64,000 nucleotides of DNA from an uncultured Gammaproteobacteria bacterium (GCA_964610305.1 CAZSVL010000002.1:40522-104521), one strand, 5' to 3'; positions 3,944 through 62,141 are shown, numbered from the stretch's first letter. Notes: generated by a model not told the origin, from the letters alone. Made by a program: numbers and translations.

Positions 3944-3956
3944 TATACTTATAGCA

Positions 3957-4982
3957 ATGAAACCGCATTTAATAACTATTAGCACCAAAACCATTCTTAA
4001 GATCGTGGTGACGGTGCTCTTGTTGTGGCTTCTCTATATTATACGCGATATTGTATTACTTTTTTTTGTCGCGGTGATTTTGGCTTCTTTGATAGAACCG
4101 TGGGCAGCGTGGTGGGAGCATCGGAAGGTTCCGCGGTCGCTTTCCATCTTGGCCATCTATGTTGTTTTAGTGGGAATTGCAGCTGCTGTGGTGGTTTTGC
4201 TCTTGCCGCCTATTGTACGCGAGGGTCAGGGGCTCGTCAAAAATTTAAATACGTATTGGGAGGCAACGGCCGGATCAATTGGGGATCTTCAGCACTTTAG
4301 CACTGATTTTAATATCTTAGAGAGGGCAAAAGGTCTGCTTTTGCCAAGCTCTGGCGCGGTAGGGAAAACACTGGGCGGCATTGTTGCCACGGTGAGTGGT
4401 GTTTTTGGCGGCGTATTTTCATTGCTTCTTGTGTTGGTGCTGGCATTTTATTTGGTAGTAGAAGAGGAGAGTGCTGGCCGATGGATACGGGCTTTTGCTC
4501 CAGATCACTATCAGCCTTTTTTAACGCGGCTTTTCAAAAAAATGCAGCGTAAGCTGGGAAGTTGGCTGAGGGCTCAGCTTATCTTAAGCTTAATCGTGGG
4601 AGTCTTTACCTACGTTGGCCTTACTATTTTAGGAGTTGAGTACGCCTTAGTGCTTGCCCTTATTGCCGCGGTGCTAGAGTTAGTGCCGTACGTTGGGCCG
4701 GTGCTCTCGGCGGTTCCGGCATTATTTTTGGCGTTTACTCAAACAGGAGGCTGGACATTGCCTCTTGCCGTGCTTGCGCTTTTTGTGGTTATTCAGCAAT
4801 TAGAAAATGATCTTTTGGTGCCGCGCGTAATGCAAAAGGCTGTGGGGCTCAATCCGGTGGTGAGTATTATGGCTATTTTAATTGGAGCTCGTCTTGCTGG
4901 TATTGTAGGAGCACTTTTGGCTATTCCTGTGGCCACCGTCATCTACGTATTTACTGAGCAGATGAGATCTGAGCGGGCATAA
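3957..4982 (+). CDS. AI-2E family transporter (PerM/YdiK-like, UPF0118)
   Basis: About 8 TM helices and conserved AI-2E blocks (LLLWLLY..., LIAAVLELVPYVGP, FLAFTQTGGW). The start M is chosen to avoid overlapping smpB. Confidence 0.6.
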   Translation: MKPHLITISTKTILKIVVTVLLLWLLYIIRDIVLLFFVAVILASLIEPWAAWWEHRKVPRSLSILAIYVVLVGIAAAVVVLLLPPIVREGQGLVKNLNTYWEATAGSIGDLQHFSTDFNILERAKGLLLPSSGAVGKTLGGIVATVSGVFGGVFSLLLVLVLAFYLVVEEESAGRWIRAFAPDHYQPFLTRLFKKMQRKLGSWLRAQLILSLIVGVFTYVGLTILGVEYALVLALIAAVLELVPYVGPVLSAVPALFLAFTQTGGWTLPLAVLALFVVIQQLENDLLVPRVMQKAVGLNPVVSIMAILIGARLAGIVGALLAIPVATVIYVFTEQMRSERA

Positions 4983-6254: not shown

Positions 6255-7358
6255 ATGAGTGCACCTCATTTGCCTCCAAAACAACCAAAAAGAAAATCAA
6301 ACATAGCGGGCTCTGTGCCCGCGCTTTTACTTTTGGTTTTTACGGGCCTTTTAGCCGGCGCTACAGCAGCTCTTATGGTGCTCTCTTATTATCCTGATAT
6401 TGTGGGATTCCGTTTTCCCTATGAGATTAATCAGCCGCAATTAAAAAGCACCCTTAAAACACCAAGTGATGCTGGCGTGCAGGCTCGCGTAACGCAGCAG
6501 TCTATCTTAAATATTTTTTCTGCCAGTGCGCGCGTTAGCCGTGGTGGTGTTTCTTGGTTACCAAAACAAAAAGCTTTGGGTCAAGCAGTGTTGCTTACGG
6601 AAGATGGGTGGGCTCTGAGCAGCGCAGCGGTTGGTTTGCGCAGTATTGATGTGATTGCAACAGACGATCAAGGAAGTGTGTATCCGGTAGAGAAAACCGT
6701 AGTAGATGCCCAAAGCGGTTTTGCTTTTATAAAAATTGATGTTGGAGGAATGAGTGCTGTTCCTCTCTCAACAAAAAATAACTTTTTTCCTGCTGACAAT
6801 GTTTTCTCTATCACCGATGGCGTCTTTTTCTCTCACACTCTTTTACCCAGTGTTTACGATTCAAACAGACCTCTGCGATCAGACAGCATAACAAGATTTC
6901 CGGCTTTGGGTGGTGCCGACTATCTGCCTGAAGGTGCGCCACTTTTTGCTCTTGACGGGTCTTTGGCTGGAGTAGTAAATACCAAAGCAGCTCAGGTTTC
7001 TATGGTGCCTATTTCCGCCGTGCGATCAGTGGTAAAAGATGTCATAGCGGGCGATGGTCTAGCAGACGCGCAAGCGTATATTTCCTACATTTCAATGCCC
7101 GATGTTGTTCCAGCGCAGTTAAGCGCACAGTCTCCGCGAGCAGGCGCCTACGTAGTGGGCGTTGGAAGGACATCTACGGCAGTGCCATTACCAGCGCTGA
7201 GAGTTTCTGATATAATAGTGGCAGTTAATGACGAGCCGGTGACCGGTAGAGCTGATTTAGCGCTGCTACTCTCTCGCATGAGACCGGCACAAGAGGTGCT
7301 TTTGTCTGTTTTTAGAGACGGGCAATATATACGCATCCCCATTATTGTCTCTGCATAA
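6255..7358 (+). CDS. membrane-anchored PDZ-domain protein with a degenerate HtrA/trypsin-like domain
   Basis: C-terminal PDZ (VAVNDEPVTGRADLALLLSRMRPAQEVLLSVFRDGQYIRIPI). The upstream region resembles the HtrA core, but the GNSGG Ser motif is replaced (EGAPLFALDGSLAGVV). Confidence 0.45.
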   Translation: MSAPHLPPKQPKRKSNIAGSVPALLLLVFTGLLAGATAALMVLSYYPDIVGFRFPYEINQPQLKSTLKTPSDAGVQARVTQQSILNIFSASARVSRGGVSWLPKQKALGQAVLLTEDGWALSSAAVGLRSIDVIATDDQGSVYPVEKTVVDAQSGFAFIKIDVGGMSAVPLSTKNNFFPADNVFSITDGVFFSHTLLPSVYDSNRPLRSDSITRFPALGGADYLPEGAPLFALDGSLAGVVNTKAAQVSMVPISAVRSVVKDVIAGDGLADAQAYISYISMPDVVPAQLSAQSPRAGAYVVGVGRTSTAVPLPALRVSDIIVAVNDEPVTGRADLALLLSRMRPAQEVLLSVFRDGQYIRIPIIVSA

Positions 7359-8010
7359 TATGATTCACTACGCAATGCACCTGGCGCGCAGTTGGCGAGC
7401 CATGGTGTTGGTGGGATTGCTAATCGCGGTTATCGCCGGCGGTCTTTCTATGGTATCTGAACTGCAGTATCGCGCTCAGACTCAGGTGTTTGTGCTACCT
7501 ACGGCAACAGCTGGCAGTGATCCTTTTACGCTCGTAAAAACCGCTGAGAGAATCGGCGATAATTTGTCTCATGTGGTAAACACCAGTTCTTTTTTTGAGC
7601 GTGTTATAGAGAGAACTAATGGAACGTTTTCTAAATCTGATTTTGGAAAAAATGATAGAGTAGCGCGCAAAGTATGGAGCAGGTCTATTTCTGTAACTCC
7701 GGTTGTGGGTACCGGCTTTGTGCAAGTTGCGGCTTTTGATGGGAACAAACGTAATGCTGCAATACTGGCTAGTGCTGTGGCTGGTGTTCTGGCAGAGCGA
7801 GGTGGAGAGTTTGTTCCGGGAGATGTCACTATTAAGGAGGTAGACGCGGTGGTGCTGTCGCGTTTTCCGGTTCGCCCCAACGTACCGCTGAACATGATTT
7901 TTGGCTTTTTAATTGGTGTTTTGGGCGTTTCTCTGGTTGAATTGTTTAGAAATCCACGTCATTCTCACGCAAGAGAGCTGACAGCGGTGGATTGGGTGAA
8001 GCATTTGTGA
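7345..8010 (+). CDS. Wzz/CapA-like polysaccharide chain-length-determinant family protein (short)
   Basis: Two TM helices at the ends. The C-terminal TM carries the Wzz-type P..P....G...G..G motif (RFPVRPNVPLNMIFGFLIGVLGVSL). The start may be a downstream M. Confidence 0.45.
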   Translation: MSLHNMIHYAMHLARSWRAMVLVGLLIAVIAGGLSMVSELQYRAQTQVFVLPTATAGSDPFTLVKTAERIGDNLSHVVNTSSFFERVIERTNGTFSKSDFGKNDRVARKVWSRSISVTPVVGTGFVQVAAFDGNKRNAAILASAVAGVLAERGGEFVPGDVTIKEVDAVVLSRFPVRPNVPLNMIFGFLIGVLGVSLVELFRNPRHSHARELTAVDWVKHL

Positions 8011-8013
8011 TTT

Positions 8014-8122
8014 AGTAACTCGTAACTCGTAACTAGTAATTAGTAACTGGTCATAATTGGCTAATTTTAGCCATTTTTTTATATTTTTCTTTCTAGTTAC
8101 CAGTTACCAGTTACAAGTTACA
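8014..8122. repeat. heptamer iteron region: NGTAACT x5 (8014-8048), palindrome TGGCTAA/TTAGCCA, then inverted AGTTACN x4 (8095-8122)
   Basis: Read directly. Same architecture as 1710-1799 and 12300-12363. Confidence 0.7.
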
Positions 8123-9497: not shown

Positions 9498-10112
9498 ATG
9501 AGGACGTCAACACAAGCGGCGCTGTGCGCAGCGCTCCTTCTGTGCCCAGAGTTGGCACGTGCAGATGAGAGGGTCCCTCCGCATCGTATTGATGGGTTGA
9601 GAGGCCGCGCAGCAGACCAGGAAGAAGAGACGATTAGGCGTAGCTCACGTTACTATCTTTTGGGTGGTACGTGGGGTCACTTGCGACCACATCCGGGTAA
9701 AACGGAGGGGTATCGCACGTTTGGTGGCGTAGGCTTTGGCCTGACCACGCCTTTTTATCGCAGAACAGCTGAGCTAGACGTAGAGCTTAAGGTTGGGCTG
9801 AGCGAAGCGGCGAAGACGGGCCCCGTTGTGGTGGTACGTATGCGGCCTGCGCTTGAGAGTCGTTTCCAGGCAGGTGGCGTAATTCAGTACTACTGGGACA
9901 ACAAAGATCTGTTTGATCTGGTGGATCACGGCTTTGGTGTTGGTGGAAGCTTTCTGTACACGCTGACATCTCGTCACAATGCGGCAGTCATGGCGGAGAG
10001 GCTTGATGCGTCGGTCGTAGCAGATCTAACATTGGGTAAAAATCGTTCAAAGACCGTAAACAAGAACACGTGGTCGCCGGCTTTTAGTTTGGCCATGGTG
10101 TTTCGTTTCTAG
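9498..10112 (+). CDS. secreted protein, possible outer-membrane beta-barrel (C-terminal ...FSLAMVFRF)
   Basis: AAAGGAG 6 nt before ATG 9498. Signal peptide ends ARA. Alternating hydrophobic C-terminus ending in Phe. Confidence 0.5.
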   Translation: MRTSTQAALCAALLLCPELARADERVPPHRIDGLRGRAADQEEETIRRSSRYYLLGGTWGHLRPHPGKTEGYRTFGGVGFGLTTPFYRRTAELDVELKVGLSEAAKTGPVVVVRMRPALESRFQAGGVIQYYWDNKDLFDLVDHGFGVGGSFLYTLTSRHNAAVMAERLDASVVADLTLGKNRSKTVNKNTWSPAFSLAMVFRF

Positions 10113-10117
10113 TCCGT

Positions 10118-10146
10118 GTGGTGAAGTGATCTTCACCCCTTTTAAG
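10118..10146 (+). terminator. putative intrinsic terminator
   Basis: GGTGAAG-TGAT-CTTCACC hairpin followed by CCTTTTAAG, a weak U tract. Confidence 0.4.
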
Positions 10147-10382
10147 CACATATTACTATTCATGGGCAGTAGTATATGCTTACAAGCGGACGACCACGCC
10201 GTTCTGCGTGTGTGCGAGGTATGCAACCTTCCGGTTGCATTGAGCATGGGCCTCACACCACGTAGAACGGCTTGGTCGACGCATGAGCGTAAATTAGGCC
10301 TTTACAAAACAAAGAAGACAAGTAAGCAAGAAACCGTTTCTTGGTGCGCCGAGGAAAGCGTATCAACATGCAAGGAGTTAAC

Positions 10383-12239
10383 ATGCGAAAGCTTTTTGTT
10401 CTACTGAGCGCCTGTATTTTCAGCATTGCCTGCGAGGGTGGGTGCGGCGATAACGCCGTTCCAGGAGGAGACTACGCGATCGCTGAAGGTGAGGGAGAAG
10501 GCGAAGCCGTTGCGGAGCCCGAGCCCGATCCAGAGCCTGAGTGCGATGAGAGTACGGCGTGCGATGAAGGTTTCAGTTGCGTCTCTGGCGAGTGCCGAGA
10601 AGTAGTTGAGGTTCCGGTAAAGCCTGAGTGTACTGACGATGATCCCTGCGATGAGGGCTTCCGCTGCGAGCGGGGCCTGTGCATTGAAGAGGTTGAGCCA
10701 GAGCCACTCGGCTGCACTTCTAACGCGGATTGCCCCAATCCGGCACAGTGCGATAGGGAGTCCGGTCTGTGTGTGGAGTACCGCATTCCGGATCCGGTTG
10801 AGCCGCCGTGCCGCGGCGTGGTGAGCTGCCCGTGTTACGATAACGGAACGTGTGACGACGGCGCGCTGTGCGTGGAGTCTGACAGCTCGGATATGTGTTA
10901 CCCCGATTCTGACAACGATGGCGTTGTTGATGAAGAGGATAACTGTCCGGCGGATGCAAACGGTCCGGCTGATGTTTCCAATCAGGTGGATCTGGATGGA
11001 GACGGCGCTGGCGATGCGTGTGATGAAGACGTGGACGGGGACGATGTTCCCAATGACGTTGACACGTGTCCGCGTACGCATAACCGGGATAACGATCCTG
11101 GCGCGTGCGCTCCGGAGCCTAACTGTCGGCAGAGCGATCAGTGTAATGATGGAAACGCGTGCACGGCAGATGTCTGTACGCCGCAGGGTACCTGTGAGAA
11201 TCGCCCCGTCAATTGTGACGATGGCGTGGATTGCACGGTTGATACCTGCATTCCGGCACTCGGTTGCTCTCATGAGGAGTCGGACGATCTGTGTGGTGAT
11301 GAGCTCTCGTGTTTCTCTTTTGGAGATGAGAGCGTCTGGCTGGATTTCTTTGGTGATCAGCTTGACCTTGAGTCTGGGTGCCAGCAGTGTGCCCCTGGCT
11401 TCCTTGGTAACGAGGACCAGTGTGACGACGGGGATCTGTGTACCCGAGGATCGTGCACGGATGAAATGACCTGCGAGCAGGAGCCTTTCTGCCATGAGAA
11501 TGAGCAGTGCCTGGTTTTCGGTGAGGAGCCGGACGAGGGTGAGGAAGATGAGCGGTTCGCTGCATGCGGAACGGATCAGGATGGAGACGGCTTCTTCCGT
11601 GGTTTCCGTATTCCGCTAGATGAGCGTGACTGCAATGACTGGAATGAGGACAGTAATCCGGATGCTCCTGAGCTGTGTGATCGAACTGACAACGATTGCG
11701 ATGGCGACATTGACGAGGGGTTTGAGTTTGGTTGGTGCGAGGTGGGCGTTGGTGCCTGCCGCCGTGTTGGTCAGCTCATCTGTAGCCCGGATCGTCGTGG
11801 AACGGAGTGCTCGGTCCGCGCTTGGGATCCTGATCCTGAGGTCTGCGGAGATGACATTGACAACGACTGCGATGGCGCAGTAGATGAGAACTGCAATGAT
11901 GGTGGTGGTCCTGGTCCCAATGGTGGGACGGACACCGTGCGTGTGTGCGTTCCGGCTGATCCGGGAGGCACGTGGCAGAGCAGCATCTTTGGGGATCCGT
12001 CCGGTGGGACGGAAAACCAGAATGCAGGCGCCTGTCGCGATGAGGTGACTCAGGAGCTCAATAGGAGTTTCCTGCGCTTTAACGCACGCAAGCCGAGCGG
12101 TTCGTACTGCTGCGGTTGGCATAACAACCCGGACGATGTTCGGGATACGTGTCAGGGACTGCGCGTTTACGTTGACGGCGTTGCTCAGGAGATTGAGTGC
12201 GTCAACGAGGACGGTCAGTACAACTATCGCCTTGAGTAA
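10383..12239 (+). CDS. Cys-rich secreted/lipoprotein with thrombospondin-type-3-like Ca-binding repeats and Myxococcus-type Cys-rich 'metal-binding' motifs
   Basis: AAGGAG RBS before ATG 10383. Signal MRKLFVLLSACIFSIAC. Contains [56 protein letters not shown] and CGDDIDNDCDGAVDENC. Confidence 0.65.
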   Translation: MRKLFVLLSACIFSIACEGGCGDNAVPGGDYAIAEGEGEGEAVAEPEPDPEPECDESTACDEGFSCVSGECREVVEVPVKPECTDDDPCDEGFRCERGLCIEEVEPEPLGCTSNADCPNPAQCDRESGLCVEYRIPDPVEPPCRGVVSCPCYDNGTCDDGALCVESDSSDMCYPDSDNDGVVDEEDNCPADANGPADVSNQVDLDGDGAGDACDEDVDGDDVPNDVDTCPRTHNRDNDPGACAPEPNCRQSDQCNDGNACTADVCTPQGTCENRPVNCDDGVDCTVDTCIPALGCSHEESDDLCGDELSCFSFGDESVWLDFFGDQLDLESGCQQCAPGFLGNEDQCDDGDLCTRGSCTDEMTCEQEPFCHENEQCLVFGEEPDEGEEDERFAACGTDQDGDGFFRGFRIPLDERDCNDWNEDSNPDAPELCDRTDNDCDGDIDEGFEFGWCEVGVGACRRVGQLICSPDRRGTECSVRAWDPDPEVCGDDIDNDCDGAVDENCNDGGGPGPNGGTDTVRVCVPADPGGTWQSSIFGDPSGGTENQNAGACRDEVTQELNRSFLRFNARKPSGSYCCGWHNNPDDVRDTCQGLRVYVDGVAQEIECVNEDGQYNYRLE

Positions 12240-12292: not shown

Positions 12293-12299
12293 AGTAGAA

Positions 12300-12363
12300 A
12301 GTAACAAGTAACAAAAAACGCACAGTGCGAAAAATTGTTACTTGTTACTTGTTACTTGTTAAT
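12300..12363. repeat. heptamer iteron region: AGTAACA x2, palindrome CGCACAGTGCG, then inverted TGTTACT x4
   Basis: Read directly. Shares the core CAAGTWACAAAAAAC with the 8116 copy. Confidence 0.7.
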
Positions 12364-17041: not shown

Positions 17042-19376
17042 ATTTTGGTATCCACGCGGCGGAGCCGAGCATTATGTTTTGGCGTTGCGTGAGCAGCTAA
17101 AAGCAAAAGGTCACACCGTGATTGAATTTGGGATGCATCATCATTTGAATATAAAAACGCCGTTTGATACATATTTTGTATCAGAATTGGATTTTAAAAA
17201 ACGCGGCGGGATAAAAGATAGTCTGCACAAGCTGATGCGGGTTATCTATTCTCCGCAAGCGCGCAAGAAGTTTGCTCAGCTTTTGGTAGATGAGGCGCCT
17301 GATGTTATTCATATTCATAACATTTATCACCAACTCTCTCCGTCAATTTTGCTTGCTGCTGAGCGTGCGCGGATTCCTGTTGTGATGACGGCCCATGATT
17401 ACAAGATTACCAATCCTAACTATAGAATGTTTCACCGTGGGCAGGTGTGTGAGCATAGTGATCATGGCAGATTTTGGGAGGCGCTCAGATATAGGTGCAT
17501 GGACACCTGGAGCGCCAGCTTTGCAGTTATGGTGGAGAGCTATGTGCATGCTTTTTTGGGTACGTACAGACGAGCCGTTACGCGTATTGTGAGCCCTAGC
17601 AATTTTTTGATTGATTTAGCGGTGAGTCGTGGCGCGCCCAGAAAATGGTTTATCAAAATTCCTACGGGCATTGCTATGCCCGCTATGCCAAAAGAGTTGG
17701 GGCAGCAGGCAGTAGTTTATTTTGGGAGACTCTCTGAAGAAAAAGGATTGGGCGTTTTGCTTGAGGCGGCTAAGATGGCTCGTACCACGCCATTTGTAAT
17801 TGTTGGCAGAGGGCCCATGGAAGCGGCTTTGAGATCTCGCGCGGGAGAGCTTGGATTGCGCAACGTTACTTTTGCGGGTTTTTTGCAGGGTGAGAGTCTG
17901 TGGAAAGTGGTGGCTGGCGCAAAAGCTGTGGTGGTGCCCACCCTTAGTTTTGAGAATTACCCATTGTCTGTGCTTGAGGCTCAGGCTTTGGGCACTATTG
18001 TTATAGCGAGTGCGGTAGGCGGTCTGCCAGAGCAAATAGTTAATGGGGAGACGGGTTTTTTGGTTCCTCCCGGAGATGCCGTAGAGCTAGCTAAAGCGGT
18101 GGAGCGCGCCATGGAAATGGATGAGGATGATCTAGCGCACATGGAGGCGGCAGCGAGAGCGGGAGTGATGCGCGTTAATGGTCATGACGAGCATATAAGC
18201 AGAATAGAGGCTTTATATAAGAGCGTGCAAGATACTGCTGCAGACGATGATAAATCCTTGCGCGTTGCTGTTATTGGGGCTAAAGGGTATCCACCGTCAT
18301 ATGGTGGCGTAGAACAGCACGTAGCGGCTCTAGGGCGCGTTTTTGCAGGGCTGGGGCACAAGGTGGTTATCTATAGTAGGTCATGGTATAGCCAAAAAAA
18401 TCAAAATGGCGATGATCCTGTAATAAGTCGCCGCCTCTGGAGCCCCAAGATAAATGGGCTGGATACACTTTATCATTCGTTTGCCAGTACGCTGTCGGCT
18501 TTGGTGGGAGATTATGATGTGGTGCATTTTCATGGAGTAGGCCCTGCTGTTTTTGCCTTTTTTGTGCGTTTGTTTTCAAAAGCTAAGGTGATAGTAACTG
18601 TTCATTCGCTTAACAGAATGCATCCTCAGTGGGGATTTTTTGCTCGGCTGTGGCTTCGTTTTGGAGAATGGGCCGCCGCAATATTTGCCCACGAGACTAT
18701 TGTTGTCTCCAGAGATTTAAGATCATATTTTAGAGGAAAACATAAAGCTGCCCGGATCCACTTTATTCCTAATGGCGTGGCGGTGAGAGAGAAAAAACCA
18801 GCGGCATCTTTGCTTGGTAGATGGGGCTTGCAGGAAGCTTCTTATGTTGTGGTGGTGGCGCGATTGGTAAAATCAAAACGTGTAGATGAAATTTTGCAGG
18901 CGTGGCGGTCCCTGCGAGCGGCAGATAGAAAGGATTGGAAGCTTGTCATTGTGGGAGATCAAAGTTTTTCATCTGATTATGTTGACGAGCTTAAAGATTT
19001 GGCGGGGAAAGATAAAAGTATTATTTTTACGGGCTGGCAGGAGGGCGAGGCACTGCAGGCCTTAATTGCTCATGCCCAAGCCTTGGTTTCTGCGAGCGCT
19101 TCTGAAGGGTTGCCTCTGACGCTGCTAGAAGCAAGTGCTTATGGGGTGGGCGCACTAGTCTCAGATATTGCTCCTCATAGAGAGATAGTTAAAGTAGACG
19201 CCGCGCGTTTTGCTGTGGGAGATGTGCCAGCGCTTGGCGCAGCCCTCAAACGGCTTTTAACTGACCCTGGATGGTTTGAGCAACTAGGAGAGCAAAATAA
19301 AAAACTCGTGGCGAGCGAGTATCAATGGGAGTCGGTAGCAGACAAAACGCTTAGTTTATACTATGATAGGCTTTAA
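17013..19376 (+). CDS. tandem two-domain GT4 glycosyltransferase (GT4-GT4 fusion)
   Basis: Two complete GT4 units (...ENYPLSVLEAQALGTIVIASAVGGLPE... and ...EGLPLTLLEASAYGVGALVSDIAPHRE...). Confidence 0.65.
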   Translation: MIMKILLVNKFWYPRGGAEHYVLALREQLKAKGHTVIEFGMHHHLNIKTPFDTYFVSELDFKKRGGIKDSLHKLMRVIYSPQARKKFAQLLVDEAPDVIHIHNIYHQLSPSILLAAERARIPVVMTAHDYKITNPNYRMFHRGQVCEHSDHGRFWEALRYRCMDTWSASFAVMVESYVHAFLGTYRRAVTRIVSPSNFLIDLAVSRGAPRKWFIKIPTGIAMPAMPKELGQQAVVYFGRLSEEKGLGVLLEAAKMARTTPFVIVGRGPMEAALRSRAGELGLRNVTFAGFLQGESLWKVVAGAKAVVVPTLSFENYPLSVLEAQALGTIVIASAVGGLPEQIVNGETGFLVPPGDAVELAKAVERAMEMDEDDLAHMEAAARAGVMRVNGHDEHISRIEALYKSVQDTAADDDKSLRVAVIGAKGYPPSYGGVEQHVAALGRVFAGLGHKVVIYSRSWYSQKNQNGDDPVISRRLWSPKINGLDTLYHSFASTLSALVGDYDVVHFHGVGPAVFAFFVRLFSKAKVIVTVHSLNRMHPQWGFFARLWLRFGEWAAAIFAHETIVVSRDLRSYFRGKHKAARIHFIPNGVAVREKKPAASLLGRWGLQEASYVVVVARLVKSKRVDEILQAWRSLRAADRKDWKLVIVGDQSFSSDYVDELKDLAGKDKSIIFTGWQEGEALQALIAHAQALVSASASEGLPLTLLEASAYGVGALVSDIAPHREIVKVDAARFAVGDVPALGAALKRLLTDPGWFEQLGEQNKKLVASEYQWESVADKTLSLYYDRL

Positions 19377-19675
19377 TCTTCTGGAGATTCAGAGAGGTCA
19401 TCTTCTTTCTTAGATTTTGCTGTTTTACTGCTTGGACTATAGAGTCTGCCGGCAATATTCCACCGGTCTACATACTGACCGATGCCTTTTTTTTGCGATT
19501 TTTTACTAATGGTGCTTTTTTGAGACCATTTAACAAGGCTTTCAAAGTTTATTTTGTATCGCCCCGCTACAACGATGTAGGAGAGCTCATCATCCAAAAT
19601 AGCACGTCTTATGGTTTGCTGACTCACTCCAAAGAGTTTTGCAGCTTCTGAGACTGATACGCGGATGATATTCAT
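19373..19675 (-). CDS. helix-turn-helix DNA-binding protein, excisionase/MerR-type HTH family
   Basis: VSEAAKLFGVSQQTIRRAILDDEL is a typical HTH_17/Xis-family motif. Basic C-terminal tail. Confidence 0.6.
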   Translation of the reverse strand: MNIIRVSVSEAAKLFGVSQQTIRRAILDDELSYIVVAGRYKINFESLVKWSQKSTISKKSQKKGIGQYVDRWNIAGRLYSPSSKTAKSKKEDDLSESPED

Positions 19676-19680
19676 AGCTG

Positions 19681-19704
19681 TTTGTATAGACTAGTGTATA
19701 CAAA
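19681..19704. promoter_or_regulatory. 24-bp near-palindromic operator TTTGTATA-N8-TATACAAA, copy 1, abutting the HTH gene start
   Basis: Read directly. It begins 6 nt upstream of the HTH ATG. Confidence 0.55.
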
Positions 19705-19793
19705 CAGCGTATATTACTAGCGTTTTTGTGTCAATTTGGACCATCAATGAATATTAGATTGAAACTGTGGATAAGTTGACCTAAATAGGCCTC

Positions 19794-19817
19794 TTTGTAT
19801 ACACTAGTCTATACAAA
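19794..19817. promoter_or_regulatory. second copy of the 24-bp operator, the exact reverse complement of copy 1
   Basis: TTTGTATACACTAGTCTATACAAA. The two copies are about 110 bp apart centre to centre. Confidence 0.55.
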
Positions 19818-19958
19818 TAGAGCTGGTAACAGGTAATGAGGGGGTGAGTATTAGTACATTTTCTTTTTTCTCTTGTTGCCCGTTATCGGGCACCTGTTTC
19901 CAATAAGTTATCCCCACCCGTTATCAAAAGCCGTGATTAGCTACAGCTATACCCAAGG

Positions 19959-20510
19959 ATGAAAAATAAGGCTCACGATCACTTGCTGCTTTTCAGGCTT
20001 CAGACCAAACAAGATAAACAAGCCTTTACGCAGCTCTACGATAAATACTACGCCGATATTCATCGGTTTGTTTTGTTTAAGGTGCCGACCGCAGAGATAG
20101 CCGACGATATAGTGGCGCAGGTGTTTGAAGGGCTTTGGATGTATGTGGTACAAAGAAAGCGTATCATTCACTTTAGGGCGCTGATGTATCGCATAGCAAG
20201 AAATAGCGTTGCTGAGCATTATCGCAGGGAAGGTAAAACTATGGATGTAGCCATAGAGTACGTGGAATTTGATGTAGCGCAGGATAATGACGGGTTGCTG
20301 GGAGTAGCGCGAGAAGATTTGTTGGCCGCGTTTGTGCAGCTTACCGAGGATCAAGCGGAGCTCATACAACTAAGATATATAGAAGGATTGCCCATAAAGG
20401 TGGTGGCAGAAGTAGTGGGAAAGAGCCGTGGCGCGGTGAGTGTTAGCTTGGGGAGGGCGCGGGCTAGTCTCAAACGCATTTTGGACGCAGATGTCCACAA
20501 GAAAAAATAA
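19959..20510 (+). CDS. ECF-type RNA polymerase sigma factor (sigma-70 regions 2 and 4)
   Basis: Region 2 (FTQLYDKYYADIHRFVLFKV...) and region 4 HTH (GLPIKVVAEVVGKSRGAVSVSLGRAR). Confidence 0.75.
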   Translation: MKNKAHDHLLLFRLQTKQDKQAFTQLYDKYYADIHRFVLFKVPTAEIADDIVAQVFEGLWMYVVQRKRIIHFRALMYRIARNSVAEHYRREGKTMDVAIEYVEFDVAQDNDGLLGVAREDLLAAFVQLTEDQAELIQLRYIEGLPIKVVAEVVGKSRGAVSVSLGRARASLKRILDADVHKKK

Positions 20511-20531
20511 CTATCGCAAGGTATACTGACT

Positions 20532-21539
20532 ATGGCGATTAGCCAAAAACAATTAAAGGATTCTCTTGCTGCATTGGGCAGTGATTTTTCTGCAGTTGAT
20601 GAAAAGAGAAGTAAGCAAACGCGAGAGCGTGTGTTGGCTTTTATGGATAACAATCCTATTGCCACTGCGCCAAGCGCATACGAAAGATTGAGATTGGCAG
20701 GAAAGTATATAATGCCGTCAGGCGTCTGGCATTATGCCTTGCAGCCTATAATGGTGGTGGTGCTTGCCTTTACGCTGGTTACCGGCGGTTGGGTGACATC
20801 GGTATCTGCCGCTAGTGGGAGTCTGCCAGGAGATGCGCTTTATACGGTAAAATTGGTTTCGGAAAAAACGCAGCTGCAACTTGCATACTGGTCTGATGAT
20901 CCGCTGGTGGTAACAGGGCTGCAGGTATCTTTTGCAAAAAGAAGGATAGATGAAATAAAAGCGGTGAGCGAGCTCTCGCCGGGAGACAAGGAGGAGCGAA
21001 TAGACAAAGCAGTGAGAGGTTTTAAAAAAGGAATCGCGGCAGTGCGCGAATCATTAGAGACAGCGGCCGATAATAAGCCTGAGCAGGTTGCGGCGATCGC
21101 CAGAAAAATACAGGATCAGGGCACTGATTTGGTAGAAGCCATAGAGCAGGCGGAACAAGCGTTGCCTCAAGATGTGGCTCAAGAGCTTGCCAGTGCAAAA
21201 GAAGTTGTGGAAGATGCAACGGATCAGGCGGTAGAGGTTATTGTGGAGAGTCGGCAACAGGGAGATCAGTTGGTTTCTTCAGACGATATAGCCAGTGTAA
21301 TTGTTGGAAAGCTGGATCGCGCTACGGTAAGCGCAGAGCCAAAAGAAGCTCTCTTGAGCGAGAAAGTTGTGCAAAAGCATCTAAAAGACGGAGAATTTGA
21401 GCAAGCGCTGGACGAGGTAAAACGCATGCGCGCTTTGGTAAAAGAGCAAACTGCGCAACAAGAAGAGCAGGAGCCAAGCTTGCCAGGTGTGCTTATAAGG
21501 GTGATAGAGAACGTAACAAGCACTATAATAGGCGAATAA
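20532..21539 (+). CDS. putative anti-sigma factor (single-pass membrane protein with acidic coiled-coil extracytoplasmic domain)
   Basis: Immediately downstream of the ECF sigma. Cytoplasmic N-terminus, one TM (IMVVVLAFTLVTGGW), then LYTVKL... Confidence 0.5.
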   Translation: MAISQKQLKDSLAALGSDFSAVDEKRSKQTRERVLAFMDNNPIATAPSAYERLRLAGKYIMPSGVWHYALQPIMVVVLAFTLVTGGWVTSVSAASGSLPGDALYTVKLVSEKTQLQLAYWSDDPLVVTGLQVSFAKRRIDEIKAVSELSPGDKEERIDKAVRGFKKGIAAVRESLETAADNKPEQVAAIARKIQDQGTDLVEAIEQAEQALPQDVAQELASAKEVVEDATDQAVEVIVESRQQGDQLVSSDDIASVIVGKLDRATVSAEPKEALLSEKVVQKHLKDGEFEQALDEVKRMRALVKEQTAQQEEQEPSLPGVLIRVIENVTSTIIGE

Positions 21540-21561
21540 CCATACGTTTAGTTAATTATTA

Positions 21562-21735
21562 TTAATCATTTCTCGTCCCTTGTGGGGAGGATTCAGCCGA
21601 TTGGCGGGCTGTATCCTCCTCTGATAAGGGGAGTAAGGAAAAGTAGTTGTGCATTAAGGTCGAGCTTCCATAAGGGAGTGTGCACGGCATTGTAACTGAT
21701 CTTGGTTGCGAGAAATGATCATTGCCAAGATCGGT
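21562..21735 (+). promoter_or_regulatory. structured 5' leader with long-range and local alternative pairings
   Basis: TCATTTCTCG (21566-75) pairs with CGAGAAATGA (21709-18). The latter also sits in the loop of a local hairpin GATCTTGG..CCAAGATC. Internal hairpin GGAGGATTCAGCC..GGCTGTATCCTCC. Confidence 0.35.
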
Positions 21736-21758
21736 ATCTAAAAAAGTCTAAATAACTT

Positions 21759-24700
21759 ATGACTACAGCAATAGCATATTCTAGAAAAGCATTTACGGGT
21801 GTTGTTGTTGCGTTGACGGTACTTTGGTCAATTGGTGCGGCCGCACTGATTTCTCCACTAGTAGCACAAAGCGCAGTCGCTCTAGCAGATCTCTCAGACG
21901 GAGATTTGATCATGACTGACGGCGCTGCAGCAGGGGCTACGGTATACGTGCACAACGACGGTAAAAAATACCCATTCCCTAACGCCAAGATCTACGCATC
22001 ATGGTACGGGGACGACTTTTCAAGCGTGATGCGCATTTCTGCGGAAGACATGGGATCCCTTGCATGGGGCTCCAACATGCTCTACCGCCCAGGCTCACGA
22101 TTGATTAAAGTTCCAGACGATCCAAAGGTGTACGCTGTTTTGCCAGGAGGCACAGTAGCGTGGGTCAAGGATGAAGCAACAGCACAGAAGTTTTACGGAG
22201 ACGCATGGGCAGGTCGTGTAGACGACTTGTTGGCATCTCTATTTGTAGCTGACTACACCAATGATCCAAACATGGATCTAACCGCTGATTCAAACTACCC
22301 TGACGGTACACTTATTAAAGTAGATGATGGCGAAGTAGCTGCATCTGCTTTGATGTACTACTACATTGACGGTGGTATGAAGCGCGCAGTGGGAGACGAC
22401 GCAATGGGACAGTTCAACTTGGACTACGCCATTGAAGTTTCCTCTGACGACGCAGCAGCATTTGACGACGGCGACGCTATGGGATCAGGAGAATTCCTTA
22501 ACCCAGTAGCCGTACAGGAAGGTACAACCACTCCTGGAGCAGACGCACCAGACGAGGTGGTAGCAGACGGAGACCTTTCCTTTAGTCTAGCCGCAGACAG
22601 CCCAACTGCTCGTCTTCTTGACGGGACAGGACTCAACGCAGTGTTGAAGGTGGCTGTAAGTGGTGAGGGTAACATCGACGAGCTAACCTTTAAGAAGGTT
22701 GGAACAACCGCTAACACCAACATTACTGGTATGCGCGTTGTTGACAGTTCTGGCGCACGTCTTGGTAACGTAGTTTCTTCAATCAATGAGGATGACACGG
22801 TTACCTTTACAGGACTTGACCACGACGTTGATGGAAGCGACTCACTTGAATTGCAAGTGGATCTAAACACCTCAGCAGGCGCTTCTGACGCACGCTTTGA
22901 GTTGACTGGTGTTGACTCTGGCGCAAGCGTATCAGGACTTCCTGTTGCAGGATTCTTGCTAGACGTTAAAGACGGTTCAACTGTTGTAACCACGGTCACC
23001 TTTGACCTTGATGGTCCAGCGGATAACTCCAGTGTTCAGCTTGGTAATGAGATTGAAATATTCAACTTCACACTTCGCGACACCGGAAGTAAAGAAAAGT
23101 CAACTTTTGACGGTATAACTCTTTACAACAACGGTTCTGTTACTGATGAAGACGTAGAGGACTACAAGCTTGTAGCTCCAAACGGCGACATCTTGGCAAC
23201 CGTACAGCAAGACGGCAAGTGGGTAGTATTTGACGGCTTGGACTACGAGCTGATCAAGGGTGCTACCAAGTCATTTAAGATCAAGGCTACACCTAAGACA
23301 GGTGCAACCAGGACTATTGACTTGCAGCTCCAAAATGACTACGACTTGAAAGTAATGGGCAATACTTCTGCTCACTACATCCTAGCTACCGCTGACGGTA
23401 GCGGAACTAACGACTCAACCTTCCCTGTAGGTGACGCTTCTGGCTACACCGACATGACTTTGGCTTCAGGTTCTCTAACCTGGAACAAGTCTGGAGAGAA
23501 CCCAACCTCTAACTACGCCGTAGGAGAGGCTGACGTAATCTTGGGAAGCTTTGACGTTAAAGCAACTGGTGAAGATATTGAAATCAGAAAAGTAAGCTTT
23601 GCCGTTCTTGAAAGCACTTCTGGTTCAACTTCAACTTCACTTGACGGAAGCGTCTTTATTAAGGCTGACGGCCAGACACTCTACAGCGCAGCATTTGCAC
23701 GTAGCATGTTTACCGGAACCAACACAGACGTAACTGAGTCAAGTAAGTCACTAAGCACCTTCCTAACCGTTCCTGCGGGAGAAACCAAACGTATTGACAT
23801 TGTTGGTACTATTGGATCCGCTGCAGCTTCAACGGACAGCTACGGTGCCGTGTTTAATGTTGCTCAGAACAAGCGCCTAACTACGGGCGACTTGCAGACT
23901 CCAACAGCTAGCATTGTTAACGCAGCAGTACGCTCTGTGAAAGCAGCAGCACTGACGGTTAACAACATTACCATGGCCGCTTCTGGAACCTACAAGATTG
24001 TTGCAGGAACCAACGGCGCGCTTGTTGGTAAGTATGTGCTTGACGCCAGCTCTGGTGGTGAGGACGTACGCGTTAACAGCATTGTAGTAAGCCAGGGTAA
24101 CGGTGGTTCCGCCGCAAGCGTAACTGACTGGAGCAACTGGCGCCTCTACAGAGTTGAAGCTGATGGATCAGAGACTGCTCTGGACACCAGCAACGATACT
24201 AACACGGGTGCTGCTAACATGACCTTTACCTTGATCACTCCTGAAGTGATTGGTAAGTCAGACGTAGACGGAGTTACCTACCACTTGCGTGCTAACCTTG
24301 CTTCCGCCGCTGGCGCAAGCGAGACCGCCGTATTTGTTGTGGGTAATGAAGGAAGCGCAGCTGTGGGAGATGTTACTGGAAACTCAGTGACGGAGAGCGT
24401 ACTTAATGGTACTTCAACGGGAAGCACCTCACTTGGAAGCACGGTAATTATTACCGCTTCTGGTGGAGCAATTAAGATTGCTGTTGATTCCGCAAACGCA
24501 CCGGTGAAGAACTCTCTGGTTAACATTGGTACTACCAATTACAACCTGGGTGCCTTTACTATCAAGGCAGAAGATGAAGATCAGAAAGTTACTGACCTTG
24601 AGGTGAGCTTGTTTGGAACAGCAAGTCTAAACGATGTTAGAAACGTCCGCCTATACTTGGATGACGCTTCAACACCACTTGCTCAGGTAACACAGCTAAC

Positions 24701-25529
24701 CACGGGTGGAGACAATGCTGCTACCGGATATCACACATGGACTTCTGCTAGCGAGTTGTTCAGAATTGAAGCTGGACAGACACGCCGCGTGAAATTCCTT
24801 GCAGACATTGCAGGAGCTGGTACTGCTAAGCTTGGTAATGATGTTCGCCTTGAGATCCGCGACGCAAGTCACGTATCCTCAACCGGTGTCAGCACCAACA
24901 CAGCATCAACCAAGACCGTGCTTAACACCAACTCAATCACTCACACCATTCAGCCATTTACCGTAACGGTAGCAGAGGCAAGCCCTGCATATCCTGCTTC
25001 TAACTTGGAGAAGGACGTGTCAACGGGATCCCTCTTGGCGCAGTTTAAGATCACTAACTCTGGTTCTGCTACAATCACTACCACGCAGTTTAAGATCTTT
25101 AACAACGGTGCATGTACGTTTGATTCAGACGGTGCAACCACCTGTAACTCTACCGGTGTTCAGTACTCACTGAAGACTTCAGCTGAGAACGCAAACTCCA
25201 CAACCAACTTGGTATCTGGAGAGGACACTGAAGAGAGCTCTGGTGTAATTACCTTCTCTGGTGGAGGACTTGCATCATCAGCTAACATTGTAATTGCCGC
25301 AGGACGCTACAGAACCTTTGGTGTGTATGTGTCTGGTACTAACGATGGATTTGCTAAGGGTGCTAGCTGGCAGCTCTCTGTTGCAACTGAAGGTGATATG
25401 ACCTTTAGCGTGCAAGATGAGAACTTGGGTTATGACGGTAACGTTGACGGTAATCAGGACGACTCTAACACGGGTCTAAAGATGACTGGTCAGCCTAGCT
25501 TGCCATCTGTCACAGACAGCGTAACCTAA
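21759..25529 (+). CDS. giant secreted surface protein (1256 aa; acidic, S/T/G/D/V-rich tandem beta-sandwich repeats), putative S-layer or adhesin
   Basis: Signal peptide (VVVALTVLWSIGAAALISPLVAQSAVA), repetitive Ig-like composition, strong terminator after the stop. Confidence 0.65.
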   Translation: MTTAIAYSRKAFTGVVVALTVLWSIGAAALISPLVAQSAVALADLSDGDLIMTDGAAAGATVYVHNDGKKYPFPNAKIYASWYGDDFSSVMRISAEDMGSLAWGSNMLYRPGSRLIKVPDDPKVYAVLPGGTVAWVKDEATAQKFYGDAWAGRVDDLLASLFVADYTNDPNMDLTADSNYPDGTLIKVDDGEVAASALMYYYIDGGMKRAVGDDAMGQFNLDYAIEVSSDDAAAFDDGDAMGSGEFLNPVAVQEGTTTPGADAPDEVVADGDLSFSLAADSPTARLLDGTGLNAVLKVAVSGEGNIDELTFKKVGTTANTNITGMRVVDSSGARLGNVVSSINEDDTVTFTGLDHDVDGSDSLELQVDLNTSAGASDARFELTGVDSGASVSGLPVAGFLLDVKDGSTVVTTVTFDLDGPADNSSVQLGNEIEIFNFTLRDTGSKEKSTFDGITLYNNGSVTDEDVEDYKLVAPNGDILATVQQDGKWVVFDGLDYELIKGATKSFKIKATPKTGATRTIDLQLQNDYDLKVMGNTSAHYILATADGSGTNDSTFPVGDASGYTDMTLASGSLTWNKSGENPTSNYAVGEADVILGSFDVKATGEDIEIRKVSFAVLESTSGSTSTSLDGSVFIKADGQTLYSAAFARSMFTGTNTDVTESSKSLSTFLTVPAGETKRIDIVGTIGSAAASTDSYGAVFNVAQNKRLTTGDLQTPTASIVNAAVRSVKAAALTVNNITMAASGTYKIVAGTNGALVGKYVLDASSGGEDVRVNSIVVSQGNGGSAASVTDWSNWRLYRVEADGSETALDTSNDTNTGAANMTFTLITPEVIGKSDVDGVTYHLRANLASAAGASETAVFVVGNEGSAAVGDVTGNSVTESVLNGTSTGSTSLGSTVIITASGGAIKIAVDSANAPVKNSLVNIGTTNYNLGAFTIKAEDEDQKVTDLEVSLFGTASLNDVRNVRLYLDDASTPLAQVTQLTTGGDNAATGYHTWTSASELFRIEAGQTRRVKFLADIAGAGTAKLGNDVRLEIRDASHVSSTGVSTNTASTKTVLNTNSITHTIQPFTVTVAEASPAYPASNLEKDVSTGSLLAQFKITNSGSATITTTQFKIFNNGACTFDSDGATTCNSTGVQYSLKTSAENANSTTNLVSGEDTEESSGVITFSGGGLASSANIVIAAGRYRTFGVYVSGTNDGFAKGASWQLSVATEGDMTFSVQDENLGYDGNVDGNQDDSNTGLKMTGQPSLPSVTDSVT

Positions 25530-25566
25530 AGCATCTAGCTTTACTTTATACGCCTAGCGTATAGCA

Positions 25567-25596
25567 AAAGCCCCCACACGGGGGCTTTTGTTTTTA
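25567..25596 (+). terminator. rho-independent terminator
   Basis: GCCCCC-ACAC-GGGGGC followed by TTTTGTTTTT. Confidence 0.8.
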
Positions 25597-25603
25597 GTAC
25601 GCA

Positions 25604-25755
25604 GGGGTTAGGGTGTAGGGTGTAGCCTCTTAGCGTCATCCTGAACTTGATTCAGGATCCAGGCAGGAGTATAAGACGTGCTCTATTTCTACCCTAGATT
25701 CTGAATCAAGTTCAGAATGACAAGTGGGCAACACTACACCCTACACCCTAACCCC
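25604..25755. mobile_element. MITE-like 152-bp palindromic element with perfect 22-bp terminal inverted repeats (GGGGTTAGGGTGTAGGGTGTAG ... CTACACCCTACACCCTAACCCC)
   Basis: Terminal IRs are exact reverse complements. Two internal hairpins (TCCTGAA-CTTGAT-TTCAGGA and TTCTGAA-TCAAGT-TTCAGAA) are themselves mutual reverse complements. Confidence 0.55.
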
Positions 25756-25771
25756 TATACCCTAGAGAAAC

Positions 25772-25856: not shown

Positions 25857-27998
25857 ATGAAGACGCCCCTATTGGGTATCGCGGTGCTCTTGAGCGCAAG
25901 CGGATGTTTGCAGTTTGAAGACAGGGCTTTTGTGTGCGAGAGTGATGATGACTGCGCGCAGGGAGTATGCGCCAGAGCATCACTGGATGACACGCAGACC
26001 TACTGCTTGGTTAACCCACCTGATTTATCTGAAAGCCAAGAAGGTGAAGGGGAGAAGCCTTCTGAGGGCGAAGGTGATAATCCAGAGCCTCAAGAGGGTG
26101 AAGGCGAGACGCCAAACGGTGAATCTGGAGGCGAGGGTGAGGGTGAGGAGATTGACCCGCCGGATGGTGAAGGAGAGGGCGAGCACGTCATTGGCGAAGG
26201 TGAAGGCGAGCTTGATTCTGGCGAAGGTGAGGGAGAAGATTCGTCTGGAGAGGGAGAAGGCGAGGTAATTGATCCCGGCGAAGGTGAAGGAGAGTTTGAT
26301 CTCGGCGAGGGAGAAGGCGAAGGAGAGGGCGAGGGCGAGCCTGATTGCCTTTTGGATGATCAGTGTATTGCTCATGATCCTTGTACCATAGGCCGTTGTC
26401 TTGCGGGAGAGTGTCGTATTGTTTTAGCAGATGATAACACTCCGTGCAGCGATGACAATGCCTGCACAGCGGCAGACACGTGTCAGGCTGGCAATTGCAT
26501 GCCGGGCGATGCTCTGGATTGTAGTGATTTTGAAGATCAGTGCAATGAGGGAGCGTGCGATCCTGATTCAGAGCAGGAGAATCCCTGCTTTAGCGAGCCG
26601 CGTCTCTCAGACGAACCGCTCGCCTGTCAGAGTGGGCTTTTTTGCGCGGTGGACGGCGTTTGCCTTGATGGTATTTGTGAGGAGCAGCAAAGAGATTGTT
26701 CTGAGTTTAATGGAGCGTGCGCAACGGGCGTGTGCTCTGAAGATCTAGGGCGCTGCCTTGCAGATGGCGCTCCTCATGAGGAAGATTTATGTGATTTGGA
26801 GCAGCCGGCGCAGTGTCATCATGGTGCATGTCAAAATGGGGCCTGCGCGGTAGTCCGGGACCAGAACGGTAGTCAGTGCAGCGATGGAATGTTGTGCACG
26901 GGCGCTGATAGTTGCGAGGACGGCGTTTGCGAAGGGATTGCCATCTCATGCGGTCATCTAAGTGATCAGTGCAATGAGGGAGTTTGCAACTCTGATACGG
27001 GCGCGTGTGAAGCGCGCGCCGTGGATGATGAGACTCAGTGCAATGACGGACTTTTTTGCACGGTGCTGGACCAGTGCAGCGGCGGCATCTGCTCAGGCGC
27101 TGCGCGCGATTGTAGCGTCGCAGATGAGATCTGCTCTATTGGCGTTTGTTCTGAGGAGCAGTCCGAGTGTGTTGCGGATGACGCTTTAGCCAATGCTACG
27201 CCGTGCGACGATCTGGATGTGTGCACGGGCGAGGGAAGCTGCCAAGATGGCGCTTGTCAGCCCGGAGAGGCGCTTAATTGCGACCATGCGGCTGATCAGT
27301 GCAATGCGGCGGTTTGCAATCCTGAATCGCTAGAGGATGATCCGTGTGAAGCTGTTCCTGTAGATGATGACACGCCTTGTACTGACGGCGATGATCTGTG
27401 CACGGTTGAAGACAGCTGCCAGCAAGGTGTCTGCGAAAGCGGAGACGCTCCTGACCGGGATGAAGATGAGCACATAGATGACCGGTGTGGTGGCGACGAC
27501 TGTGATGATGGCGATCAGACCGTTTATCCCGATGCTCCGGAGCTTTGCGACGGAGTTGCTAATAGCTGTGGTGGCCAGGTAGACGTGTTTTATGAGGTGC
27601 CGACACCTTCATGGTCTGAGTGGGGTCCTGTGGATGGTTTTGCGCGTGTTTGGACAGAGGCTGCCCGCGCTGGAAAGGTGTGTGTAGAGACAATTCTAGA
27701 GAATGCACATGCACGCTCTTCTCAAATTGGATTGCCAGAGAATTGTTCTCTTGAGATTTGCGTTGAAATTCAAAACGGTGATGAGGGAGCTGCCATACGT
27801 TTTGATGTTGTTGACTATGGACAAGTATGGCTTCTGGAAGAAGAGGATGGGGAGTTTTGTCAAAGTCTTCCGGACGATTTGCCGAATCCGCTAGAAGTGG
27901 AAATAATTTCGGTTGGTAATGGTGAACGATATATGTGCAACTTCAAAATCCGCTCCACGCTCTCTGCAGAAGGTGAGGGAGAGGGTGAAGGTCTGTAA
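25857..27998 (+). CDS. Cys-rich GE-repeat secreted lipoprotein (more than 15 ~40-aa Cys modules; C-terminal [10 protein letters not shown] motif)
   Basis: AAGGAG RBS before the ATG. Signal ...LLSASGC. Long (GEGE)n acidic linker. Repeated C-x-D-x-N-x-C-T-x-x-D-x-C-x-x-G-x-C modules. Confidence 0.7.
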
Positions 27999-62080: not shown

Positions 62081-62125
62081 CTTTCTTTGCAGCAAGTATA
62101 CCATAGGTACTCCATAAATAATGTG

Positions 62126-62131
62126 GTATAA
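62126..62131 (+). promoter_or_regulatory. -10 element TATAAT placed 10 nt before ATG 62142 (possible leaderless mRNA)
   Basis: TGGTATAATCTTCTCACTATG. No SD sequence is present. Confidence 0.35.
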
Positions 62132-62141
62132 TCTTCTCACT

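Follow-up and report, generated by a model that had tools for sequence, protein, structure and literature searches.

A CGTC-tagged REP dimer nested between inverted heptamer arrays in an intergenic palindrome

CGTC-tagged repetitive extragenic palindromic (REP) sequences carry an unpaired CGTC tag (with TGTC and CCTC variants), a stem of 8-9 bp with A/T at its first and second positions, a loop of 4-5 nt and an unpaired 3-nt 3' tail of consensus CCA, and they occur mostly as head-to-head dimers, tags outside, which are often heterodimers and lie 20-100 bp apart (Di Nocera, De Gregorio & Rocco 2013, BMC Genomics 14:522, PMC3733652). The class, which includes Neisseria dRS3 (CGTC-1) and Rickettsia RPE-4 and RPE-6, has no dedicated transposase, ranges from about 20 to thousands of copies per genome, and is listed for five phyla as hosts, with the sphingomonads named and Patescibacteria not among them (PMC3733652). 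G-rich heptamers, such as GGGAATC in Xanthomonas and GGGGAYT in Nostoc, are another intergenic repeat; they show a preference for four units, and Xanthomonas has 70-75 convergent pairs of heptamer arrays that form inverted repeats (Rehm et al. 2015, PLoS One 10:e0144275, PMC4692102). Here we describe an intergenic palindrome at 25603-25764 of a 64,000-nt stretch of metagenomic DNA (GCA_964610305.1, CAZSVL010000002.1:40522-104521, deposited as from an uncultured Gammaproteobacteria bacterium; the whole stretch is hereafter the window) in which repeats of these two kinds lie one inside the other. We give a probability of about 0.72 to the reading that this region consists of two nested intergenic repeats of already described kinds, a CGTC REP dimer inside a heptamer-repeat palindrome, that it serves as a passive structural spacer, and that it is not a single mobile element.

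The outermost feature of the locus is an inverted repeat whose 23-nt arms, at 25603-25625 and 25734-25756, are 100% complementary, and nested inside it the repeat finder reports a second inverted repeat, at 25635-25663 and 25693-25721, whose 29-nt arms are 90% complementary. A first-pass annotation of this DNA had described perfect 22-bp terminal inverted repeats around two interior hairpins that are reverse complements of each other; both parts of that description hold, and the terminal repeat gains one A/T pair. Structure prediction, which the same annotation had named as a check, gives a single long hairpin far better than shuffled sequence: on the plus strand 25595-25770 folds into one long nested hairpin of -94.3 kcal/mol (z = -11.6), and on the minus strand it reaches -100.8 kcal/mol (z = -13.5), every shuffle of either strand being worse. 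Across the 64-kb window the 22-mer of the arms occurs at just its two arm positions (0 expected, 100 shuffles), and matches to a 19-mer of the inner hairpin are limited to 25639-25657 on the plus strand and, with 2 mismatches, 25699-25717 on the minus strand (0.02 expected from shuffles).

The inner hairpins are a head-to-head heterodimer of CGTC-tagged REPs, by structure and by sequence. Unit 1, at 25634-25661 on the plus strand, consists of the tag CGTC (25634-25637), the stem strands ATCCTGAA and TTCAGGAT on either side of the loop CTTGA, and the tail CCA; unit 2, at 25695-25722 on the minus strand, has the tag TGTC (25722-25719), the stem strands ATTCTGAA and TTCAGAAT around the same CTTGA loop, and the tail CTA. 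Both stems are perfect over 8 bp and start with AT, both loops have 5 nt, both tails are CCA-like, and the tags point outward with the stems 39 nt apart. The 33-nt spacer between the units (25662-25694) yielded neither a repeat nor a match. By its 8-bp stem and 5-nt loop, the dimer is nearest to the CGTC-2 group of Di Nocera et al. (2013), and it shares with the class the tag, stem, loop, tail, head-to-head heterodimeric arrangement, spacing, intergenic site and lack of an adjacent transposase. It differs in its Patescibacteria-like host, in being the one dimer in 64 kb and in its position between heptamer arrays.

The sequence agrees with this assignment, and the first-pass suggestion of a REP-like element, offered as an alternative to a transposon, is right for the interior of the palindrome. 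In a blastn search of plasmids, 25633-25661 is 96.6% (28/29) identical to intergenic repeats on plasmids of Sphingobium yanoikuyae and Sphingomonas koreensis, and the Sphingobium locus is itself a head-to-head heterodimer, pairing CGTC-ATCCTGAA-CTTGT-TTCAGGAT-CCA with CGTC-ACCCTGAA-CTTGT-TTCAGGGT-CCA. The stems of the two units in the window differ by one compensated base pair (C>T, G>A), so that both hairpins stay perfect. We considered a compensatory change that arose in situ and rejected it, since the stems TCCTGAA and TTCTGAA both recur many times in the retrieved loci; the dimer in the window therefore pairs two recurrent variants, with the reservation that these are the very stems specified by the search pattern described next.

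That pattern, the 19-mer hairpin TYCTGAACTTGATTCAGRA, specifies exactly the stems TCCTGAA and TTCTGAA, and a scan with it found at least 120 JGI metagenome contigs together with 25 IMG/VR viral contigs. About 10 of the 25 viral matches (L174, L177, L180, L186-L189, L191-L193) lack the GTCA and TC flanks and resemble coding coincidences (e.g. ..SELDSE..), so the IMG/VR count overstates the presence of REPs. Among the matches listed, which is the scope of all counts of units and of their loci that follow, most keep the flanks GTCA-[hairpin]-TC and often have a related hairpin in the opposite orientation within 100 nt. TCCTGAA (84/249) and TTCTGAA (48/249) are the two commonest stems, both being specified by the pattern. 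The base before GTC is T in 120 and C in 95 of 247 units, and the commonest tails of these units are CTC (55), CTA (50) and CCA (44). Their dimers are head-to-head in 48 cases (42 of them heterodimers), tandem in 18 and tail-to-tail in 11; several of the other retrieved contigs carry 2-3 REP dimers apiece. In a less circular test, the anchor was no more than a TGAC lying downstream of an exact unit; of 89 such anchors, 35 had 7 or more of the 8 stem pairs, and between them these showed 14 different stems, whereas a control anchor gave none in 42. These REPs recur across phyla.

REPINs, reportedly doublets of GTAG-type REPs that are mobilised by RAYT transposases (Bertels & Rainey 2011; Nunvar et al. 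2010), are the other described arrangement of this general form. Like them, the locus has two inverted REP hairpins within a larger hairpin and belongs to a repeat dispersed in the intergenic regions of many genomes; unlike them, it carries a CGTC tag rather than GTAG, and no RAYT, Y1 or other transposase was found in the window, nor does one recur beside the units. When the open reading frames (ORFs) within 400 nt of the 247 units, at 145 loci, are clustered, none of the clusters is a transposase family; the largest are EF-Tu/LepA and histidine kinases. The arm ends (..GGGTGTAG) could also be read as GTAG tags of the RAYT type; we discarded this reading, the resemblance being a by-product of the heptamers. 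As a separate observation, a metagenome contig resembling the candidate phyla radiation (CPR) has, at 9700-11150 (L061), a sortase-like ORF (10076-10792, minus strand) between two inverted, near-identical segments, each of which contains a head-to-head CGTC REP dimer, with at least 45 nt identical upstream of the tag.

The outer arms are tandem heptamer arrays. Tandem Repeats Finder (TRF) assigns period 7 to both, with GGGTGTA in 3.1 copies at 25605-25625 and CTACACC in 4.4 copies at 25734-25764. The left arm (25603-25625) reads as the degenerate heptamers A-GGGGTTA-GGGTGTA-GGGTGTA-G, with three plus-strand G-tracts, and the right arm (25734-25764) as CTACACC-CTACACC-CTAACCC-CTATACC-CTA; by TRF the right arm runs one heptamer further (CTATACC CTA, to 25764), for which the left side has no partner. 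With two or more tandem GGGNNNN units in non-coding DNA (3.1 and 4.4 copies) and a predicted four-tract motif, the arms belong to the class of G-rich heptamers. They share with the heptamers of Rehm et al. (2015) and with those of the cyanobacterial short tandemly repeated repetitive (STRR) sequences the tandem G3-4N3-4 structure, the degenerate units, the intergenic site between co-directional ORFs, the presence of four-unit arrays with quadruplex potential and the convergent pairing. The units here, GGGTGTA, GGGGTTA and GGGTATA (TAGGGNN), are of the same kind but of another family, and the G-rich case is, in contrast to those systems, one of several heptamer palindromes in this genome.

TRF counts 10 period-7 arrays in the window; 60 dinucleotide shuffles yield 1.0 on average and never more than 3. 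Eight of the 10 form four inverted pairs, with a different unit in each pair, and all four pairs are intergenic between co-directional genes, where each comes directly behind either a stop codon or a terminator-like hairpin. The three further palindromes also fold better than shuffles, by the z values given here. The second palindrome, at 8013-8121 (z = -3.6), has (TAGTAAC)x5 at 8013-8048 and (AGTTACC)x4 at 8095-8121; it begins 3 nt past the stop of ORF 7345-8010, and its loop holds a small hairpin followed by a T-run. The third, at 12299-12361 (z = -5.5), has (AAGTAAC)x2.3 at 12299-12314 and (TTGTTAC)x4 at 12335-12361, is preceded by a terminator-like hairpin and has the central hairpin CGCAC-A-GTGCG. 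The fourth, at 63162-63242 (z = -7.7), has (AGGCATT)x3.6 at 63162-63186 and (CTAATGC)x4.3 at 63213-63242; it begins 4 nt past the stop of ORF 62121-63158, has the central hairpin CGCAC-CTTAAAA-GTGCG and is followed by a terminator-like hairpin. Since each palindrome has its own unit, the arms at our locus are an instance of a genome-wide habit, unlike copies of a mobile element. The 64 kb hold two CGCAC-N(1-9)-GTGCG hairpins (12319-12329 and 63196-63212), both exactly central in heptamer palindromes; it is striking that both lie in palindrome loops, although two such hairpins in the window as a whole are no rarity, since 15 of 100 shuffles have them. A CATACAA x4.6 array at 1710-1741 lies between divergent genes, and its TTGTATG partners are weak.

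The heptamer layer, too, recurs across phyla. In a collection of one genome per GTDB species (596 Gb), the 20-mer GGTTAGGGTGTAGGGTGTAG has 48 loci, against about 1 expected by our own arithmetic, in Cyanobacteria, Acidobacteriota (Pyrinomonadaceae/Blastocatellia), Gemmatimonadota, Planctomycetota, Elusimicrobiota, Chloroflexota and several CPR lineages. Many of these loci have an inverted array 30-150 nt further on, around an unrelated interior. Together they span 361 kb and contain 208 period-7 arrays, against 25-64 for each of the periods 8-12, and 28 inverted pairs of many different units, for example TAGCTTC/CTAGAAG at four sites on one Doudnabacteria contig. The Planctomycetaceae metagenome-assembled genome (MAG) Im510_bin130 (L016, L018, L021, L022, L023, L046, L048) has a multi-copy element of about 130-150 nt with the outer inverted ends GTAACCGTTCACGAAAATTT...AAATTTTCGTGAACGGTTAC, in which the GGTTAGGGTGTAGGGTGTAG array is internal and faces TTGTCCC-type units; this is a MITE-like family (after miniature inverted-repeat transposable elements) with heptamers inside, not as its ends.

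A further heptamer system is the TAACTGA direct repeat of Beggiatoaceae, Cyanobacteria and Bacteroidetes, which lies just upstream of start codons, is almost always direct (169 direct sets against one indirect), and whose stop-codon content has been noted (MacGregor 2015, Front Microbiol 6:1397). The arrays here resemble it in their intergenic position, their stop codons and their puzzling spread across phyla, and two other arrays in the window have similar units (TAACTNG/GTAACNN); they differ in being inverted pairs at the 3' ends of genes. In the left arm TAG recurs every 7 nt (25609, 25616, 25623), which places a stop in all three plus-strand frames, and in the right arm TAG every 7 nt on the minus strand (25734-25762) does the same for all three minus-strand frames. 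Because 7 is not a multiple of 3, three heptamer units give three-frame stops from either side. The units in the arms of the other palindromes likewise hold TAG or TAA.

The first-pass annotation offered as one possibility a non-autonomous transposon with telomere-like ends, and in that reading the whole 152-160-bp unit would be a MITE that ends in the heptamer arms as terminal inverted repeats and is mobilised by a transposase whose gene lies at another place in the genome. The perfect 23-nt repeats, the MITE-typical size of about 150 bp, the intergenic position and the strong fold are indeed those of bacterial MITEs, and a genuine MITE-like family with a TAGGGTG array exists in the Planctomycetaceae MAG, where 8 loci share the outer ends GTAACCGTTCACGAAAATTT. 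The locus nonetheless lacks the hallmarks of a transposon. It is a single copy, with no second composite in the 64-kb window, and its flanks, ...TAGTACGC on the left (ending GTACGC) and ATACCCTAGAG... on the right (starting ATACCC), contain no direct repeat that could be a target-site duplication. No related insertion sequence was found, and the roughly 38 ORFs of the window, searched with Pfam or NCBIfam, point to polysaccharide and surface functions, SmpB, an extracytoplasmic function (ECF) sigma factor, signal peptidase and the like, with no transposase, cognate or otherwise, among them. The two layers also part company elsewhere: the inner hairpin occurs in 0 of the 48 arm-matching loci, and inspection of flanks found the arms in 0 of the 145 hairpin-matching loci. 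What had been taken for terminal inverted repeats are arrays common to unrelated loci, and repeats of the same type build three further, unrelated palindromes in the window. We regard a MITE as very improbable.

The palindrome lies downstream of a 1256-aa ORF (21759-25529; stop codon 25527-25529), and 36 nt after the stop begins a GC-rich, terminator-like hairpin with a T-run (25565-25595, plus strand; CAAAAGCCCCC-ACAC-GGGGGCTTTTG-TTTTT) that is outside the element. The downstream gene occupies 25858-27998, with ATG 25858, preceded by AGGAG, as its most plausible start; it has no Pfam match, the N-terminus of its predicted product resembles a lipoprotein signal, and GE-rich tandem repeats (27 and 57 nt) lie at 26192-26339 within the gene. 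Of the earlier placement of the element between a terminator and a promoter, the terminator-like hairpin and T-run stand, and the promoter, TTGACA at 25772 with TAAGGT at 25795, fails a consensus scan and is only a possibility for the downstream gene. The 1256-aa ORF, which has no Pfam domains, closes a cassette (19373-25529) that also comprises an HTH_17 regulator on the minus strand, an ECF sigma factor (19959-20510) and a DUF5667 protein (20532-21539), and that is conserved in Uhrbacteria-like relatives. Elsewhere in the window, a transfer-messenger RNA gene (Rfam RF00023, 81 bits) lies directly downstream of smpB on the same strand (3098-3498 and 3500-3994, both minus).

All named homologues of the 1256-aa protein are from Patescibacteria, the best being from Candidatus Uhrbacteria RIFCSPLOWO2_02_FULL_51_9 (58% identity), and by this measure the host appears to be an Uhrbacteria-like member of the Patescibacteria/CPR. 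We found no report in the literature of heptamer palindromes or CGTC REPs in CPR. Relatives retain the synteny of helix-turn-helix regulator, ECF sigma factor, DUF5667 protein and giant protein, and three Uhrbacteria-like loci (L198, L199, L200) have no heptamer composite after the orthologous giant gene. Right after the stop codon of that gene they carry a longer CGTC-like hairpin, GTCATCCTGGAG-TCCCGAC-TTG-TCGGGAC-GATAGGATCCA (L198 6575-6625, L200 6944-6985, L199 7843-7862). A 74-kb syntenic relative (L195), which covers about 34-54 kb of the window, has no heptamer arrays there. The window is part of an NCBI contig of 128,635 bp. A 4.2-kb Logan contig (L049, SRR8146441_100637), from a short-read assembly of this same genome, is identical to the window up to 25656 and ends inside REP unit 1; palindromic repeats of this kind will be under-counted in MAGs because they fragment assemblies.

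The arms also bear on a possible quadruplex, which the first-pass annotation had considered unlikely since only three G-tracts were present. This is correct for the plus strand and incorrect for the minus strand, where the right arm, with its extra unit, reads GGG TATA GGGG TTA GGG TGTA GGG at 25739-25762 (candidate quadruplex oligonucleotide AGGGTATAGGGGTTAGGGTGTAGGG) and has four tracts, making it the sole canonical G3+N1-7 x4 motif of the 64-kb window. Such a motif invites the view that the element regulates, specifically at this locus, one of its neighbours (the lipoprotein gene downstream or the surface-protein gene upstream), acting as a quadruplex or hairpin switch, or as a heptamer operator, for instance for the nearby pair of ECF sigma and anti-sigma factors. 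The motif lies 10-33 nt upstream of TTGACA on the antisense strand, and a preference of G-rich repeats for the antisense strand, at no more than 50 bp ahead of an ORF, is reported (Rehm et al. 2015, PMC4692102); a heptamer periodicity would also suit protein binding in register. Against this, the promoter does not pass the scan, and in relatives with conserved sigma factor, DUF5667 and giant-protein synteny the corresponding intergenic region lacks the element. The other three palindromes, moreover, lie beside unrelated genes and have units (TAGTAAC, TTGTTAC, AGGCATT) that are not G-rich, so quadruplex potential is not a shared property of the four; the common denominator of the heptamer palindromes is period 7 and inversion. 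Locus-specific regulation is in our view unlikely.

E. coli REPs act in mRNA stabilisation, and together with the very stable fold predicted for both strands this would be compatible with a structured small RNA, or with a cis-acting RNA such as a 3'-untranslated-region stabiliser cotranscribed with the upstream gene. The element lies after the terminator, however, and no promoter-like site reads into it. The fold is as good on one strand as on the other, which is to be expected from a DNA palindrome and not from an oriented RNA, and the composite is not conserved in any retrieved locus. Rfam gave no relevant family, either for the whole window at the gathering threshold or for the locus at E <= 10; the sub-threshold matches at E <= 10 are terminator-like fragments of unrelated families and BTnc231 at 17.9 bits (gathering score 80.4). 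We consider an RNA element very unlikely. A blastn search of a phage database gave no match, and a literature lookup with raw sequence strings returned chance primer matches alone.

In the reading that we prefer, a CGTC REP dimer within a heptamer palindrome, the heptamer arrays would arise locally by slippage or expansion with their inverted symmetry kept, and would be found at gene 3' ends, sites at which long hairpins are tolerated. One such palindrome would already have been present when the REP dimer landed, or was retained, in its single-stranded loop. Removal of 25634-25722 leaves a 19-nt loop between the heptamer arms, which is an ordinary size for such palindromes. Comparable nesting is known, as longer palindromes with REP dimers inside them have been described from Anabaena variabilis, Thermomicrobium roseum and Halothiobacillus neapolitanus (PMC3733652), and among the retrieved contigs two more (L079, L129) have head-to-head REP dimers inside perfect palindromes of 22-23 bp, control pairs of flanks all being below 8 bp. 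Insertion of the dimer into a hairpin loop is what we infer from this arrangement, and a preference for such loops is suggested rather than demonstrated. The composite would then probably act as a passive structural spacer, separating the terminator behind the 1256-aa surface-protein gene from the next, lipoprotein gene, a role for which locus-specific regulation would not be required. A very stable nested hairpin may form on single-stranded DNA or on read-through RNA, where it could block read-through and 3' exonucleases, and the palindrome would put three-frame stop codons on whichever strand reads in.

Several points weigh against this account. Among the matches listed for the metagenomes, period-7 arrays within 100 nt of REPs are enriched about 2-fold (3 near, 26 far). 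On so weak an enrichment, from 3 cases, we do not claim a systematic association of REPs with heptamers; because it is only about 2-fold, the nesting could be a coincidence of two repeats that both favour intergenic DNA and not a targeted insertion. The window contains one REP dimer, which leaves the multi-copy status of the repeat in this genome unproven. The relatives L198 and L200 (about 60% protein identity) have a different downstream gene in addition to lacking the composite, so they do not provide a comparison of an empty with an occupied site. RNA-level roles are doubtful, as the element may rarely be transcribed because an apparently good terminator precedes it. Finally, the function proposed for the composite is wholly inferred.

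A bolder view, which we hold to be improbable, is that inverted heptamer arrays with locus-specific units are all made by a single process, so far unrecognised, that acts on intergenic hairpins and keeps a 7-nt register, and that CGTC REP dimers preferentially insert into the resulting loops. Such a process could be templated repeat addition, or could involve a protein or polymerase with a heptamer footprint. If this were true, the element would be a snapshot of two interacting, cross-phylum mechanisms of genome shaping, neither with a known enzyme.

For annotation, the locus shows how a mis-annotation can be avoided, as what looked like a transposon with telomere-like terminal inverted repeats consists of two documented repeat classes. 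CGTC REPs near-identical to alphaproteobacterial ones, present in a Patescibacteria-like genome and in metagenomic and viral contigs, point to a host range wider than that described. This small genome and many phyla have frequent heptamer palindromes, with units particular to each locus, which sharpens the long-standing question of why bacterial intergenic DNA has an excess of 7-nt repeats. The REP dimers, in turn, may have a preferred target, as is hinted by their recurrence in loops within longer palindromes.

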